The notes under the pieces are model-generated. The model worked only from the letters and a program-made list of their open reading frames with translations. It had not been told where the DNA came from and ran no database searches. Positions 16,148-42,649 of a DNA stretch of 64,000 nt are shown in pieces. Where the stretch lies: NCBI RefSeq assembly GCF_000027125.1, contig NC_017626.1, one strand, 5' to 3'. Position 1 is the stretch's first letter. Each line of letters begins with the position of its first letter. Source of the DNA: Escherichia coli 042 (lineage in GTDB: Bacteria > Pseudomonadota > Gammaproteobacteria > Enterobacterales > Enterobacteriaceae). A program made the translations under genes and the position numbers.

Positions 16148-16223
16148 GCCGATATAGCTCAGTTGGTAGAGCAGCGCATTCGTAATGCGAAGGTCGTAGG
16201 TTCGACTCCTATTATCGGCACCA
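16148..16223 (+). tRNA. thrW: tRNA-Thr (anticodon CGU)
   Basis: 76-nt cloverleaf GCCGATATAGCTCAGTTGGTAGAGCAGCGCATTCGTAATGCG...GGTTCGACTCCTATTATCGGCACCA; anticodon loop TTCGTAA; encoded CCA. Confidence 0.9.
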
Positions 16224-21710: not shown

Positions 21711-22617
21711 TAGCTATACCCGGCAGGTCAAACTGTTGATGGACGCTCTGCCGCATGTGGCGAAGGAGTCCGGTTTCGCATTAAAAGGCGGCACCGCAAT
21801 CAATTTGTTTGTGCAGGATTTTCCCCGTCTGTCGGTGGATATCGATCTGGCGTATAAGACTTTTGCGGATCGCGATACCGATTTGACGGCGATCAACGAC
21901 GCTTTGAAGAGAATTACTGCATCGCTGAACAGTAAACCGGGGATTACCGCGATTCGGCAGGAAAATAAAACGGATGAAAAGCGCATCATTGTGAATACGG
22001 CTGATGCCCAGATTAAGATCGAGGTTAGTCCGGTCTGGCGTGGGCTATTGTTGCCTCCGGCAGAAATGTCGGTGTGCGAACGTGTGGAAATGGAGTATGG
22101 CTTCACCACTATGAGTGTCGTTTCGCTGGCGGATCTTTATGGCGGTAAAATCTGCGCAGCGCTTGATCGTCAGCACCCGCGCGATCTGTTTGATGTGCTG
22201 AATATGCTGGAGAAACCGGGACTGATGCGGGAGATCTTTGACGGTTTTCTTTGTTATCTGGCAGGCCATCCCCGCCCCATTGCCGAGTTGCTGGCTCCAA
22301 ACTGGGATACAGAGCGGATCACGACGCTGTATGCTCAGGAATTTTCGGGGATGACTCAGCAGGAAACGTCGCTGGAATCGCTGCTGTCAGTAACGACTTT
22401 GCTGCCGCAGGCGTTGAAGTCACATCTTACGGATCTGGATCGCGAGTTCTTGCTCAGTTTTAAGCAAAACAGCCCTGACTGGTCGCGGTATCGCTATCCT
22501 GAAATTCAGCATCTTCCGGCTATTCGCTGGAAGCAACGTAATCTGGCGGTGCTGAAAGATAAAAATCCGGCGAAGTATGTGGCGGCGGTGAATAAGCTAG
22601 AGAGGGTGCTGGCGTAA
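21697..22617 (+). CDS. AbiEii/AbiGii-family nucleotidyltransferase toxin (DUF1814)
   Basis: Start set at ATG 21697 (GGAAGGAG Shine-Dalgarno, 14-nt overlap with the upstream gene); nucleotidyltransferase motif ALKGGTAINLF...RLSVDIDLA. Confidence 0.75.
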   Translation: MDLRDSYTRQVKLLMDALPHVAKESGFALKGGTAINLFVQDFPRLSVDIDLAYKTFADRDTDLTAINDALKRITASLNSKPGITAIRQENKTDEKRIIVNTADAQIKIEVSPVWRGLLLPPAEMSVCERVEMEYGFTTMSVVSLADLYGGKICAALDRQHPRDLFDVLNMLEKPGLMREIFDGFLCYLAGHPRPIAELLAPNWDTERITTLYAQEFSGMTQQETSLESLLSVTTLLPQALKSHLTDLDREFLLSFKQNSPDWSRYRYPEIQHLPAIRWKQRNLAVLKDKNPAKYVAAVNKLERVLA

Positions 22618-22682
22618 TCAATAGACCAGCATTAATCACAGAAGATTACCAATCAGACAGAAATGGTTAAATCGTCGAATTC

Positions 22683-22850
22683 ATAATTAATACTTTTTCT
22701 TACGCCGCTGAACAGCTTGAAAAGGATACATATTTTAAATATCAGTGAAGTGAACAGTTTATTGCCGTTATTAATAGAGATGGAGGAATAAATACGCGTA
22801 TTCTACTATTGCAACAAAAAAAACGATGATGATCAGTTTTCATAATGAAG
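22683..22850 (-). repeat. Decayed paralogous copy of the ykgO 3' end plus ykgR region (duplicate of sequence at 41307-41340 and 42020-42176)
   Basis: 22683-22720 aligns to the rpmJ2 3' end at about 75% identity with a 1-nt frameshift (tail ...AVQRRKKKY vs ...AVQGRKKKR); 22723-22850 is about 90% identical to 42030-42160 but with a roughly 28-nt deletion in the ykgR-like frame. Confidence 0.5.
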
Positions 22851-23059
22851 TAACCTGACAGATATAAAAATGTTGATTGAGGCTCAATGCCCGAATGAAG
22901 GTTGTCGAGGGAGCCAGGTGGTTTTTTCTTTTGGGTGATCTCCATTGCTGGATAGTCCCCTCTTTCTCGCTCAAAGCAGGGTGTACAGACCCTGGAATTG
23001 AACGCAGAGGGACTACCTGACACAATTTTGCACAGTGAAGAGTCGGTCGTTATTAACGT

Positions 23060-23944
23060 TCAGATTTTCAATGTATCAATGACCATCCGCAGGGCGGGGG
23101 AGACGTTGCGATGAGGGTAATAGAGAAACAATCCCTCCATTCGCAGGCTGTAACGCTGCAACACCCTGATAAGCTTACCGTGTTCTAAATCATCCGCGAC
23201 CAGTTCAACAGGAACATAGGCCAATCCGAGGCCCAGCCGGGCTGCTTCTGCTTCCATATAGCTGTCGGATAAGGCCCATTGCCCTTCAGGGCGATGAGTG
23301 ATTTTTTTATCATCCTGATTGAGTTCCCACTGGTATACGCTGCCGTCGGCAAACTGATAGGCGATACAGGGATGCGCCTTTAAATCCGCCGGGGTTTGCG
23401 GAAAACCATAGCGACGAAAATGTTCCGGAGTCCCCACAATTGCCATCTCCATATCGGGCGTGATGCGTACCGCGACCATACCCTGGCCGACTTCAGGCCC
23501 CAGGCGGACACCTGCATCGAATCTTTCCTCGATGATATCGACGAACCGGCTCTCATTTATCAGTTCAAGCCGGATATCAGGATATCGCTGTTTAAATACC
23601 GCCAGATTTGGCAGCAGGCATTTATCAATCGCGTGCTGGCTGGCATTGATACGCACCGTGCCGGAGGGCGTCTCTCGATAGTGCGCCAGCGTGGCAAGCC
23701 CAAGATCTAACATTTCAAATCCAGATGCCGTCTTCTGGTAGAGCTGCTCGCCTGCTTGTGTCAGCGACAGTTTACGCGTGGTGCGCACTAGCAGCTGGAC
23801 ACCCAGCCTTTCTTCAAGCTCGCGAACAGAACGGCTGACTCCTGACTGAGCAAGACCCAGCCGCTGAGCCGCTGCGGTAAAGCTGCCTTCTCGCACCACC
23901 TGCATAAACAGGTACAGCTCGTTGTAGTTCTCCCTTTTCGCCAT
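23060..23944 (-). CDS. LysR-family transcriptional regulator
   Basis: 294 aa; N-terminal HTH (FTAAAQRLGLAQSGVSRSVRELEERLGVQLLVRTTR) and LysR substrate-binding domain; divergent from the hydrolase gene. Confidence 0.85.
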   Translation of the reverse strand: MAKRENYNELYLFMQVVREGSFTAAAQRLGLAQSGVSRSVRELEERLGVQLLVRTTRKLSLTQAGEQLYQKTASGFEMLDLGLATLAHYRETPSGTVRINASQHAIDKCLLPNLAVFKQRYPDIRLELINESRFVDIIEERFDAGVRLGPEVGQGMVAVRITPDMEMAIVGTPEHFRRYGFPQTPADLKAHPCIAYQFADGSVYQWELNQDDKKITHRPEGQWALSDSYMEAEAARLGLGLAYVPVELVADDLEHGKLIRVLQRYSLRMEGLFLYYPHRNVSPALRMVIDTLKI

Positions 23945-24109
23945 TGAAACATCCCCCCTTCATGCCGGCAATCTCCGCATTAATTTATAACAATATGGTA
24001 TTAATCTTAGCATTAATCGCCCCCTAATCAGCACTAATTCTGCTCACTATAATGACCCCATCAAAGCAAAGCACTGCAGCGTTGTCCGTCGGAAACCTGT
24101 ATCTCTCTG

Positions 24110-25267
24110 TTGTTTTTTATGGGGATTTTTATGAAAGCCTTCACCCGAACGCTAAAAACCGCGATGCCGACCATGCTGCTTTTCGCGTCATTATGTGGAG
24201 TCACGACAATGAGTTATGCTGATTCAACCAATCCTAATGCCCCTGTGTCCATGACAGATAAATGGGATAAAACGTTCGCCGAGAGCCAGAAAGTCGATCA
24301 CCGTAAAGTATCGTTCCCGAACCGATATGGCATCACCTTAGTGGGCGATCTTTACCTGCCTAAAGACCGTGGCGATCGCAAGCTGGCGGCGATTGCGGTC
24401 AGTGGGCCATTTGGCGCGGTGAAAGAGCAATCCAGCGGCCTGTATGCGCAGACGCTGGCGGAACGAGGGTTTGTTACCCTGGCGTTCGATCCTTCTTACA
24501 CCGGGGAAAGCGGCGGCTATCCGCGAAACGTCGCCTCACCGGATATCAACACTGAAGATTTCAGCGCGGCGGTGGATTTCTTAGGGCTGCAAAAAGAGGT
24601 AGATCGCAACCGTATCGGGCTGCTCGGTATTTGTGGCTGGGGCGGCATGGCGCTGAACGACGTGGCGATGGATACCCGCGTTAAAGCGGTAGCTACCAGC
24701 GTGATGTATGACATGAGCCGGGCGATGGGTCATGGTGTGGGGGATGGCAAAGACCGTTATTCTACCGCCGACCGTCGTGCCGTTCTGCAATATCTGAATG
24801 AACAGCGCTGGAAGGATGCGCAGAGCGGAACGTTCGCTCACGGTGGTCATGATATTAATGTCGACAGCAACGGCAAGGTCAGTGCGGGCGAGCGCATTCT
24901 GCCAGAAACGCTGCCGGCAAATCCTCATCCGGTACTGAAAGAGTTCTTTGACTACTATCGCATGCCGCGCGGCTTCCACGAACGTTCCGTTAACTCTACC
25001 GGGGCGTGGACGGCAACGATGCCGCTGTCATTTATGAATATGCCGCTGTTGAGCTACGCCAGTGAAATCACCATTCCGACGCTGATTGTGACCGGTGAGA
25101 AAGCGCATTCACGCTATTTTGCTGAAGATGCTTACAAGGCGGTTGGCAGTAAAGACAAAGAGTTGGTGGTGGTACCAGGGGCAAATCACGTGGACCTGTA
25201 CGATAACGTGGCCGGAAAAATACCTTTCGCGAAGTTCGAACAATTTTTCCAGACCAAACTGAAATAA
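24110..25267 (+). CDS. Alpha/beta-hydrolase (dienelactone-hydrolase-like) with N-terminal signal peptide
   Basis: Signal-like N-terminus (MKAFTRTLKTAMPTMLLFASLCGVTTMSYA; start could be ATG 24131); hydrolase core LGICGWGG; paralogous to the protein at 44037-44957. Confidence 0.8.
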   Translation: MFFMGIFMKAFTRTLKTAMPTMLLFASLCGVTTMSYADSTNPNAPVSMTDKWDKTFAESQKVDHRKVSFPNRYGITLVGDLYLPKDRGDRKLAAIAVSGPFGAVKEQSSGLYAQTLAERGFVTLAFDPSYTGESGGYPRNVASPDINTEDFSAAVDFLGLQKEVDRNRIGLLGICGWGGMALNDVAMDTRVKAVATSVMYDMSRAMGHGVGDGKDRYSTADRRAVLQYLNEQRWKDAQSGTFAHGGHDINVDSNGKVSAGERILPETLPANPHPVLKEFFDYYRMPRGFHERSVNSTGAWTATMPLSFMNMPLLSYASEITIPTLIVTGEKAHSRYFAEDAYKAVGSKDKELVVVPGANHVDLYDNVAGKIPFAKFEQFFQTKLK

Positions 25268-25342
25268 AACCTCTCCTGAATTGATGCAAAGCCACCGGTC
25301 TATGGCCGGTGGCTTTTATCCTGATCTTTGTGAAATTTCACT

Positions 25343-26536
25343 ATGTCGACACTAAGCCAAACACTATCACCTCATCATCAGCGCGCATACTGGGGCGGTA
25401 TTTTTGCCATGACCCTGTGCGTGTTTGTGCTGATTGCTTCTGAATTTATGCCCGTCAGCCTGCTCACGCCGATTACCCGCGATTTAGGCGTGACGGAGGG
25501 GCTGGCAGGGCAGGGGATTGCTATCTCCGGCGCGCTGGCGGTTCTGACCAGCCTGACGCTTTCAACGCTAGCTGGAAAGATGAATCGTAAGTTCCTGCTG
25601 CTGGGGATGACGGTTCTGATGGCCGTATCGGGGCTTATTATTGCGCTGGCTTCCAGTTATCTGATGTATATGGTCGGTCGTGCGATGATTGGTGTGGCCA
25701 TTGGCGGATTCTGGTCGATGTCAGCGGCAACGGCTATTCGTCTGGTACCGCAGCATCAGGTTACGCGTGCGCTGGCGATTTTCAACGCCGGTAATGCGCT
25801 GGCGACGGCCGTGGCCGCACCGCTGGGAAGCTATCTGGGGGCTAAGGTCGGATGGCGAGGCGCTTTCTTGTGCCTGGTGCCTATCGCGGTTGTCGCCTTT
25901 ATCTGGCAATGCATTAGTCTGCCAAGCATGGATGCGAATAAAAGCCACACGTCATGTGGCGCGGTATTCCGCTTATTTAGCCGCCGCATGGTTGTGGTCG
26001 GCATGATAGCCTGCGGCCTGTTTTTCATGGGGCAGTTTGCACTATTCACCTATGTGCGCCCGTTTCTGGAGTCGGTGACACGGGTTAATTCCTTAGGCTT
26101 GTCGTCGATTTTGTTGATTATCGGCGTGGCCGGTTTTATTGGCACGCTGGTTGTTTCGGCATTTCTCAACAGAAAATTCTACCCCACGCTGATGGCCATA
26201 CCCGGACTGATGGCCGTCATTGCCATCGGTCTGATGCTTACCGGGCATCACGTCTGGACGGTCTCGCTGCTGTTAGGACTCTGGGGCATGCTGGCCACCG
26301 CCGCGCCAACCGGATGGTGGACATGGATTGCGCGTACGTTGCCTGACAACGCCGAAGCTGGAGGCGGGCTCATGGTCGCGGTGATTCAGCTCGCCATCGC
26401 CCTTGGATCAACGGCAGGAGGCATCGTGTTTGACCGCCTTGGCTGGCAGAGCACGTTTGCTATGAGTAGCGTGCTGCTCCTTTGCGCTGGCGTACTGACC
26501 TTTGTTACCGCACGCCAGAAGGCCGGTGCGCTTTAG
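25343..26536 (+). CDS. MFS-family transporter
   Basis: 397 aa with about 12 predicted transmembrane segments; MFS-like composition. Confidence 0.85.
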   Translation: MSTLSQTLSPHHQRAYWGGIFAMTLCVFVLIASEFMPVSLLTPITRDLGVTEGLAGQGIAISGALAVLTSLTLSTLAGKMNRKFLLLGMTVLMAVSGLIIALASSYLMYMVGRAMIGVAIGGFWSMSAATAIRLVPQHQVTRALAIFNAGNALATAVAAPLGSYLGAKVGWRGAFLCLVPIAVVAFIWQCISLPSMDANKSHTSCGAVFRLFSRRMVVVGMIACGLFFMGQFALFTYVRPFLESVTRVNSLGLSSILLIIGVAGFIGTLVVSAFLNRKFYPTLMAIPGLMAVIAIGLMLTGHHVWTVSLLLGLWGMLATAAPTGWWTWIARTLPDNAEAGGGLMVAVIQLAIALGSTAGGIVFDRLGWQSTFAMSSVLLLCAGVLTFVTARQKAGAL

Positions 26537-40292: not shown

Positions 40293-41306
40293 TTACAGGT
40301 ACATTCAGTTTCTTTAGTAAATCGGAAGTAAATAAGATACGTAGCACATATCAATATAGGTTAAACGAGATTAAGTTTTAATTATTTCGATTAGGTTTAA
40401 ATTTATGTTTTTTTCCTGATGAGTGTCAATATGTGAACAGAAAAGGAATTCCATGGTTAAGTCAATATTTACAAAAAATGAAAATATTGCTTTTTTGATA
40501 AGAAGAAAAAGACATTCAGTTTCATAAGGTTATTGGCAATATAACGTTCAATTCTTACTTGCATTTTATATTAGCCAGGAACTTTGCCCTGAGGTGTTAG
40601 GAATAGTCTTAATGTGTTGTGTAATGGACTAGTAAAAAAACAAGTTTAAATGATAAGAAATAGAATATAAAACTATCATGAGTCATAATTAAAGATGATT
40701 TGCCAATCAGTAAGGTGTTTTAATGGATTAACATGCCGCACAAAATGGTTATGGGTGTTCATCCCAATAAGTGATGAAAAATTAAACAGGTGTAAGTACG
40801 TCATCTGTCCGGTAAGCCCCCTAAGAGCCAAATTAAGTGAAGTTAAACGAAGACTGCCAGTTGTCACAGGAACGATGGCCTCTTTGCCAGGGCACTGGAT
40901 TCAGTCATCTGTGCGCGTTACTCTAACTGGCACTCGAACGTCGGCGATGGGGTTACCGGTGGATCAGGCCGTTCCTGTGGCGTAAACGTTTTTATGTCAG
41001 TACCAACAGATTTACCACATTTATCATCTTAACAGTTTGAGTGTAAATGCAGGCTGCGTCGCAAAGGGAGGAAACTGAGTGGCGTGTTCAGTCTAAAAGA
41101 GGGTTGATGCCAGCATACAGGGCGAAGCTGGTCAACAAGTCAACATTAAGATAATGGAATATTCGGAGAGAAACGTCAGGCAGTTGACCTTAAATGAAGA
41201 GGAAGATATATCCCCAGGAAAATTAATGCTGGTGTAATAAATACACCAACATTAATCAGGTCTGATTATTAATCAGACAAATATCGTTAATCCGGCGAAT
41301 TATGAA

Positions 41307-41447
41307 TCAACGTTTTTTCTTACGCCCCTGAACGGCCTTAAAACGTGGATTAGATTTACAAATCACATACAGCCGTCCTTTTCGCTTCACAATCTGACAG
41401 TCTGGATGGCGTTCTTTTGCGGTACGCAGAGAGTTAAGGACTTTCAT
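41307..41447 (-). CDS. rpmJ2: Zinc-independent paralog of ribosomal protein L36
   Basis: Not in the ORF track (46 aa). Manual translation [46 protein letters not shown]; start overlaps the rpmE2 stop by 1 nt. Confidence 0.85.
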
Positions 41448-41713
41448 CACGCCCCCTTTTTCGTGCTAACAAAACGACCAAAACGTTGGGTGAACCGTGC
41501 AACATTTCCTTCTGATGCTACTGTTCTCAGCTTCCCTGTATAGAACGGGTGCGATTTCGAAGAGACATCAATTGTCACGTACGGATACGTTACGCCATCC
41601 AGCTCAATCTCACGGTCTGTTTTGATAGTCGAGCCGATTTTAAAGTACTCATCAACACTGGTGTCATGGAACACCACAGTACGATACTCAGGATGGATAT
41701 TGGGTTTCATCAT
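41447..41713 (-). CDS. rpmE2: Zinc-independent paralog of ribosomal protein L31
   Basis: 88 aa, [33 protein letters not shown]...; no CxxC zinc ribbon. Confidence 0.9.
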
Positions 41714-41720
41714 TTTTACC

Positions 41721-41741
41721 CGTTATGTTATAACATAACCG
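41721..41741 (-). promoter_or_regulatory. Zur box in the rpmE2-rpmJ2 promoter
   Basis: Near-perfect palindrome CGTTATGTTATAACATAACCG, 8 nt upstream of the rpmE2 start codon. Confidence 0.7.
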
Positions 41742-42074
41742 TAAAGATACATGCTCATCCGGATCATTTCAACACCCAATCCCTGTGACCATTTGTGGTA
41801 TGTGGAATTTCCTCAACGGGGAAGTCTGGCATTGTTAACAGCCATTGGCTGACGCTCCCATAAACGCCTGGATGAGTGATTGATGATGGTTTCGCTGAGA
41901 GTATGGATTTTTCGAGAATGGAGGTTATCTCCACTTTACTGGCCGATGATTTATCGCAGTATGATTGATTACCTGACAGCGTGTATTCCTCTCCCACGGA
42001 TATAATAATTACTTACAAAAAGGGAGAGGATGCATATTTTAAATATCACTGAAGTGAACAGTTTATTGCCGTTA

Positions 42075-42176
42075 TTAATAGAAATGGAAAAATAAATAGG
42101 CGTATTCTACAATTGCGACAAAAACAACGATATTAATCAGTTTATGACTGATTTGTTGTACTTTATTCTCTTTCAT
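42075..42176 (-). CDS. ykgR: Small hydrophobic protein YkgR (33 aa)
   Basis: Manual translation MKENKVQQISHKLINIVVFVAIVEYAYLFFHFY; below the ORF-track length cut-off; matches my recollection of YkgR. Confidence 0.6.
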   Translation of the reverse strand: MKENKVQQISHKLINIVVFVAIVEYAYLFFHFY

Positions 42177-42649
42177 TGGTACTTCCTCGCTTTAAAAAAG
42201 AGTGCACTTCGTAAGTGCCCTTATATAAATAACGAGTTTGGTCAACCAATTTTTTGACATGTATCACAAATTTGAATAGATGTATTACATCAACTATCTT
42301 TTATTGCCCCAACGTCATTGATATATGTCGCCTGAAGTCAGTTCCGGGAATGAGTCTGATCTCAAGACAGGCCCAGTCCTGGCGTTGATTAGCGCTGAGG
42401 AGCATATCGCATCTCATCATAATGTCGTATCTCCTGGGGTGTTATACAAGATATCGTTGTTGGTGACCTGGGAGAGGAATTGAGTTCTATTAAACCGTCA
42501 ACTATGCCGGATACATACTGGATTACACAGCAGGCACGCCTTATGAGAGAACGTGCCGCAGTGACGGGTTAATTATCTGAAAGAATTTGCGAGGCTGTAT
42601 CGGTTACTCATTGGTTTGATAGTTTTACTCTCGGGAGAGTAATAGATAT

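Follow-up and report, generated by a model that had tools for sequence, protein, structure and literature searches.

Positions 22607-22839 of the DNA analysed here, which align in two pieces with the ykgO-ykgM-ykgR locus further along the same stretch, very probably are a second copy of the E. coli ykgL'-ykgO-ykgM-ykgR segment, lying in direct orientation and reduced to a remnant without function. The analysed DNA, hereafter the window, is a stretch of 64,000 nucleotides from Escherichia coli 042; the remnant (233 bases) is referred to as copy A, and the intact ykgO-ykgM-ykgR locus (41227-42176) as copy B. A BLAST comparison of window positions 22500-23100 against 40800-42600 gave two ungapped matches. 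Patch 1 of copy A (22607-22723) matched 41227-41343 with 89/117 identical positions (76%; E=1e-20), and patch 2 (22723-22839) matched 42027-42143 with 105/117 identical positions (90%; E=3e-42). Both copies have the same orientation and are collinear. The patches abut in copy A, where they share one base (22723), whereas they are 683 bp apart in copy B; therefore, copy A corresponds to copy B minus 683 bp (Table 1). A third copy of the patch sequences was not found within the window, which holds copies A and B only.

Table 1. Features of the remnant (copy A) and of the intact locus (copy B), in window coordinates
Feature	Position	Strand	Description
Copy A patch 1, non-coding	22607..22686		Equivalent of the ykgL-ykgO hairpin region (copy B 41227-41306)
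ykgO (type B L36) 3' fragment	22687..22723	-	Last 11 codons and stop, FQAVQRRKKKY
Deletion junction	22723		Equivalent of copy B 41344-42026 absent (683 bp: ykgO body, ykgM, Zur box, upstream sequence)
Copy A patch 2, non-coding	22723..22770		48 nt downstream of the ykgR stop; 2 differences from copy B
ykgR 3' fragment	22771..22839	-	Last 22 codons and stop, KLIIIVFFVAIVEYAYLFLHLY
Spacer, remnant to 3' end of LysR module	22840..22985		Present in all A alleles; no similarity to copy B or IS2
Copy B patch 1	41227..41343		Hairpins between ykgL and ykgO, and ykgO 3' end
Segment missing from copy A	41344..42026	-	Most of ykgO, ykgM, Zur box, upstream non-coding DNA
Copy B patch 2	42027..42143	-	48 nt downstream of ykgR, and ykgR codons 12-33 with stop
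Intact copy B genes	ykgO 41307-41450, ykgM 41447-41713, ykgR 42075-42176	all -	Zur box 41722-41739; 18.6 kb right of copy A

These alignments bear out the homology between the edge of the thrW island and the ykgO-ykgR region that had been reported in an initial annotation of this DNA, and they revise several of its details. Patch 1 had been correctly recognized as the 3' end of rpmJ2 (ykgO), but with a start at 22683; the match begins at 22607 and also covers the ykgL-ykgO hairpin region. A 1-nt frameshift described for the rpmJ2 fragment was not seen, since the alignment is ungapped and the fragment keeps the frame and the stop position of the parent's C-terminal 11 codons. For patch 2, the identity of about 90% to the ykgR region holds, but its extent to 22850 does not, as the similarity stops at 22839/42143, which is the boundary between ykgR codons 11 and 12. 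A 28-nt deletion within ykgR had been proposed as well. Nevertheless, the next 146 nt (22840-22985) aligned to copy B no better than shuffled sequence (local score of 9 versus a shuffle mean of 9.1, with 307/500 shuffles at least as good), and neither did 22840-23060, so that the proposed deletion finds no support. Just past the boundary, copies A and B have ATGAAA in common, a match of six bases only, and no remnant of IS2 was found in the spacer. The YkgR frame, described as destroyed, is kept and open over the 22 retained codons, which read KLIIIVFFVAIVEYAYLFLHLY in copy A and KLINIVVFVAIVEYAYLFFHFY in intact ykgR, each followed by the stop. What is absent is the start codon together with the first 11 codons: a TGA lies directly upstream of codon 12, and there is no in-frame ATG, GTG or TTG. 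The absence of the rpmE2 (ykgM) body and of the Zur box from copy A was confirmed, the single Zur-box match within the window being that of copy B.

The coding capacity of copy A was evaluated for each of the three products. It has neither a complete YkgR open reading frame with start codon and ribosome-binding site nor the full 46-codon frame of type B L36 (YkgO/RpmJ2), of which the last 11 codons and the stop remain, and it does not constitute a Zur-regulated ykgMO operon, with neither a Zur box nor similarity to ykgM. Against the NCBIfam equivalog model NF041474, the ykgR fragment scored 31.9 bits over profile positions 12-33 of 33, below the cutoff of 40, whereas intact YkgR (42075-42176) scored 74.9 bits. 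Copy A shows the homology, collinearity and orientation of a decayed segmental duplicate, and also its loss of coding capacity and expression signals, given the 683-bp internal deletion and the lack of a start codon, promoter-like site or Zur box. An Rfam search gave no match for copy A; for copy B it gave one weak, sub-threshold folP match (E=0.4), which was disregarded. Moreover, the ykgR fragment of O157-type alleles (KPINTVVFVATVEYAYLSLHFY) carries the non-conservative changes L to P, I to T and F to S, and substitutions accumulate on both strands of copy A. Since there is no promoter-like site, Rfam family, start codon or Zur box, and since the O157-type changes are non-conservative, copy A is, as judged from its sequence, an ordinary, non-functional pseudogene remnant that would be unable to encode any of the three products.

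Among 5,426 complete E. coli genomes, the remnant and its right-hand spacer occur in 910 (~17%), and 907 of these 910 also carry the adjacent LysR gene. The complete genome closest to the window is that of VCSW5 (~99%). K-12 lacks the remnant and has ptwF and a different yagP fragment at the site, and in UTI89, which also lacks it, islands reach yagU. The remnant could thus be used as a marker that travels with the LysR gene of the LysR-hydrolase-MFS module, and is itself of little functional importance. We also observed that window-type and O157-type alleles differ at 8/69 positions of the ykgR fragment and are only ~92% identical over 22607-23300, compared with 97% over the 5.7 kb compared, which represents a deep local haplotype divergence. 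Indels of 18 nt and 9 nt separate the two allele types near 22946 and 22977.

In every PGAP-annotated genome inspected (VCSW5, O157:H7, O145, A10 and UID2309220033), RefSeq/PGAP lists these 69 nt of ykgR among the pseudogenes ("small membrane protein YkgR; incomplete; missing N-terminus"), and an older annotation of CFIAFB20140388 gives it as a partial hypothetical protein. The PGAP feature, K7X33_RS23370 in VCSW5 and E4U08_RS29105 in O157:H7 TX 265-1, is the same 69 nt as window positions 22771-22839. However, it spans the ykgR piece only, leaving unannotated the ykgO fragment, the hairpin region and the link to the deleted ykgM, and annotators could widen it to take in the ykgO fragment. No paper describing the remnant was found in a literature search. 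The known counterpart is the intact ykgO-ykgM (rpmJ2-rpmE2) and ykgR locus of E. coli (b4506, b0296 and b4671), to which copy A corresponds in order and orientation, with a homologous ykgO 3' end and hairpins, and a homologous ykgR 3' end and adjoining 48 nt. It differs from this locus in lacking the 683 bp, the ykgR promoter and the first 11 ykgR codons.

Next, the origin of copy A was considered from its alleles and from outgroup sequences. The junction is the same in all 30 A alleles examined (24 metagenome contigs and 6 genomes), which points to a single origin. At this junction, three alleles (L095, L108 and L110) are longer by 9 nt (GAAAAGCAG), and 6 nt are thereby added to the match with copy B. 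This longer form is probably the older state of the deletion junction, and the common allele may have derived from it by slippage between GAAAAG repeats. Outgroups were taken from members of the YkgM cluster and comprise a single E. marmotae and a single E. albertii genome. Neighbor-joining trees of both patches (117 nt each) had the same topology, (albertii,(marmotae,(A,B_coli))). A block of roughly 1.1 kb (window ~41222-42292), from ~150 nt upstream of ykgR to ~85 nt past ykgO, is common to E. coli copy B, E. marmotae and E. albertii. In A alleles without adjoining AbiE genes, patch 1 runs 37 nt further left, into sequence homologous with the 3' portion of ykgL, a doubtful ORF; to the left of these 37 nt, no significant homology to copy B was found in the island-free alleles. 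This 37-nt flank is E. coli-specific and lies outside the boundary of the inter-species block. Because the trees pair A with the E. coli copy B, and because A and B have this E. coli-specific flank in common, an intragenomic origin is indicated. The fixed A/B differences of patch 1 comprise 7 A-derived, 7 B-derived and 6 ambiguous changes, a symmetric pattern, as would be expected under neutrality, on small counts, and the presence of fixed changes on both branches supports a copying event that preceded the divergence of the sampled E. coli alleles. Overall, these comparisons, on small counts, indicate that copy A arose in the E. coli lineage from copy B, at a time when E. marmotae had already split off and the sampled E. 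coli alleles had not yet diverged. The old decayed duplicate of ykgO-ykgM-ykgR that the initial annotation had suggested is in agreement with the adjacent patches, the single junction and the sister position of A to the E. coli copy B. Judging by the remnant, the Zur-regulated ykgO-ykgM-ykgR block would have been duplicated at the base of the E. coli lineage.

Regarding the mechanism, the original event may have been a segmental duplication, possibly tandem and of about 19 kb, followed by deletions. The direct orientation fits a tandem duplication of ~19 kb in which most of the left copy was subsequently lost, and so does the exact coincidence between the end of the similarity and the start of the sequence that leads into the present 18.4-kb interval. 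A dispersed copy with later trimming is just as possible, because neither outer flank of A is related to B. Copy A has lost 683 bp internally (the ykgO body, ykgM and the Zur box) and, on its right, the ykgR promoter and the first 11 codons. An intact A-type copy was looked for with an A-specific 19-mer in metagenomes and near the LysR gene in a single genome of each species, and none was found. The 19-mer gave 24 real matches, all to the same remnant, and none of 78 loci from other species had ykgM, ykgO or ykgR within 10 kb of the LysR gene. The intact second ykgMO-like copy that might have been expected in other genomes at the thrW-proximal position was thus not encountered.

The two patches have diverged unevenly. 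In patch 1, A differs from B at 28/117 positions, and B from E. marmotae at 23/117. In the non-coding part of patch 2, the corresponding counts are 2/48 and 11/48, and in its ykgR-coding part 10/69 and 6/69. The contrast between patch 1 and non-coding patch 2 is significant (Fisher p=0.013), and at the patch 1 rate ~11 A-B differences would be expected in the 48 nt where 2 are seen (binomial P=2.5e-4). In the ykgR-coding part, 3/4 polarizable fixed changes fall on the A branch, again on small counts. Constraint is unlikely to be the cause of the likeness between A and B in the 48 nt, because these are not conserved between species. The simplest explanation, with the counts being small, would be gene conversion over a short tract at a later time, by which the left half of patch 2 may have been homogenized with copy B.

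The same counts bear on two alternatives to a decayed, intragenomic duplicate. It is quite improbable, in our view, that copy A is an independent horizontal import of a relocatable ykgR-ykgM-ykgO block from another Escherichia lineage into the thrW-proximal variable region, with later decay. The site of this block does differ by species, E. albertii having it elsewhere than E. coli and E. marmotae (near yagU and AKR genes), ykgM paralogs are carried on an integrative and conjugative element (ICE) and on an O157 urease island, and in patch 1, copy A differs from the E. coli copy B at 28 positions and from E. marmotae at a similar number (26). Against an import stand the E. coli-specific 37 nt that A has beyond the inter-species block boundary and the sister relationship of A and E. 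coli B in both patch trees; in non-coding patch 2, copy A shares with B many E. coli-specific states (2 differences, versus 11 to E. marmotae). Even less likely, to the point of being very improbable, is that selection has kept the remnant, or at least the left half of patch 2 with its high conservation, as a functional element in both copies, whether a regulatory site, a small RNA or a small ORF. Such an element could be suspected from the paucity of A-B differences in the 48 nt, from a plus-strand ORF of 21-24 codons in patch 2 that is open in both A and B, and from the ykgR frame, which is open through 22 codons in every A allele and which, over 69 nt, may be so by chance or by weak constraint. 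Nevertheless, the 48 nt vary between species (11/48 between E. coli and E. marmotae, and 9/48 between E. marmotae and E. albertii), and the plus-strand ORF was rejected as a candidate, having an early stop in E. marmotae and having lost its ATG in the window allele. Copy A shows no Rfam match or promoter-like site, and it is missing from 83% of E. coli genomes, K-12 and UTI89 included.

A third alternative, in which the patches would be a scar left by the attachment site or the integration of the thrW island, has to be weighed against the setting of the remnant. In the window, thrW (16148-16223) is followed by the island, with an integrase remnant, an ash-family gene, a 1,069-aa ORF and AbiEi/AbiEii, which extends up to ~22607, and the remnant does adjoin AbiEii, the last island gene, with a 12-nt overlap. 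In O145 RM8988, however, there is no island at thrW, and the order is thrW, LysR2, SDR, DUF1471-like, remnant, LysR, alpha/beta hydrolase, MFS and paoD, so that the remnant is present without the island and is separated from the tRNA gene by the LysR2-SDR-DUF1471-like genes. No repeat derived from thrW and longer than 15 nt was found between 16300 and 24000, hence no attR was recognized there, and the attR of K-12 (ptwF) is a different sequence in a genome that lacks the remnant. The island-free allele refutes a scar of integration, which had also been raised initially as a recombination scar, and we assign it practically no likelihood. Because it is present in the island-free O145 RM8988, the remnant is part of the flanking backbone and not of the thrW island.

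In the window lineage, the first 12 nt of patch 1 also belong to the AbiEii stop region (GTGCTGGCGTAAT, 22605-22618), whereas in some metagenome contigs (loci L099, L108 and L111 were examined) the 3' end of AbiEii lies ~2.8 kb upstream of the remnant. The overlap, together with the separation seen elsewhere, suggests that a microhomology-mediated deletion trimmed the left end of the remnant in the window lineage. By this step, a deletion of ~2.8 kb through the 12-nt microhomology would have fused the AbiEii stop region to patch 1, with loss of the LysR2-SDR-DUF1471-like genes. The DUF1471-like neighbor was also considered as part of the duplicated segment, and was rejected as it has no counterpart near copy B. 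On the other side of the remnant, the LysR, alpha/beta hydrolase and MFS genes (window 23060-26536) form a three-gene module conserved in >40 Enterobacterales species, with LysR identities of 80-98% across the module's occurrences, for example 98% to Citrobacter amalonaticus. The similarity to C. amalonaticus ends at about window position 22986. Beside copy B, ykgL (41046-41273) is frameshifted in the window by two 1-nt deletions relative to K-12, and annotations of UTI89 and UID2309220033 likewise mark it as frameshifted. This ORF is unlikely to be a genuine gene.

Two homologous patches in direct orientation might mediate rearrangements, as the initial annotation had anticipated; an A×B deletion would span 19.3 kb, and the longest run of identity between the copies is 33 nt. 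The predicted A×B deletion junction, used as a chimeric query, was covered at ≥80% in 0/5,426 complete E. coli genomes, which gives no support to such rearrangements. In strain PO06101 (L117), ykgMO was lost through an IS1-bounded deletion instead, which extends between the thrW island and the equivalent of window position 41980 and has taken out pao, ecp and ykgMO while sparing ykgR.

Finally, the position of the intact locus was compared among species. In E. marmotae, the flank on the ykgR side (AKR genes and LysR) is syntenic with E. coli, which places copy B at the ancestral site of the two species. In E. albertii (locus L128, 9319-11094), both flanks of the block differ from those of E. 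coli, with EspG and an autotransporter on one side and a tRNA gene and csiD-gab on the other. The E. albertii block lies ~520 nt from this tRNA gene, which has a CAT anticodon (tRNA-Met by ARAGORN), and its position resembles that of a tRNA-linked island. In Salmonella, Klebsiella and Enterobacter, ykgO-ykgM is found downstream of acrAB-tomB-hha-maa-ylaC, with unrecognizable ykgR/ykgL flanks and, in Salmonella and Enterobacter, an EAL-domain gene on the other side. Since ykgO-ykgM lies beside ylaC in these three genera, the thrW-proximal position in E. coli is derived. The remnant, along with the differing positions of the block in Salmonella, Klebsiella, Enterobacter, E. albertii and E. marmotae, shows that zinc-sparing ribosomal paralogs have been repeatedly moved and copied.

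A broader reading, which we advance tentatively and hold to be rather unlikely, is that the ~1.1-kb ykgR-ykgM-ykgO block is relocatable in Escherichia within tRNA-linked variable regions (near thrW in E. coli, next to the tRNA gene with the CAT anticodon in E. albertii), that the remnant is the footprint of one copy event, and that A and B are still converting by short tracts. If this were true, the zinc-starvation ribosomal paralogs would be accessory, mobile cargo and not fixed core genes. Parts of the locus have also been copied elsewhere in E. coli. There are ~950 extra ykgMO matches in E. coli genomes, and the two that were examined are ykgM paralogs, neither of them at this locus. These extra ykgM (type B L31) paralogs are intact, with ~78-80% DNA identity. 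One lies beside hok and urease genes (8002-8265 of a 212-kb record labeled as a plasmid of O157:H7 EDL933; locus L082), and the second is inside an ICE with TraC/TraU/TraG. Unlike the remnant, which has no ykgM, the copies of the O157 urease/tellurite island and of the ICE have an intact ykgM with its own upstream region, without ykgO or ykgR flanks.

A search for relatives of YkgR among 1.84 billion representative proteins gave eight matches; most of these run into assembly or adapter sequence at their ends, and IS2 disrupts the gene of one. In GCA_002809875.1 (L119, 1-100), an IS2-family end breaks ykgR within 1-2 nt of the limit of the A/B similarity (window ~42144), which may reflect a preferred insertion spot or a coincidence.
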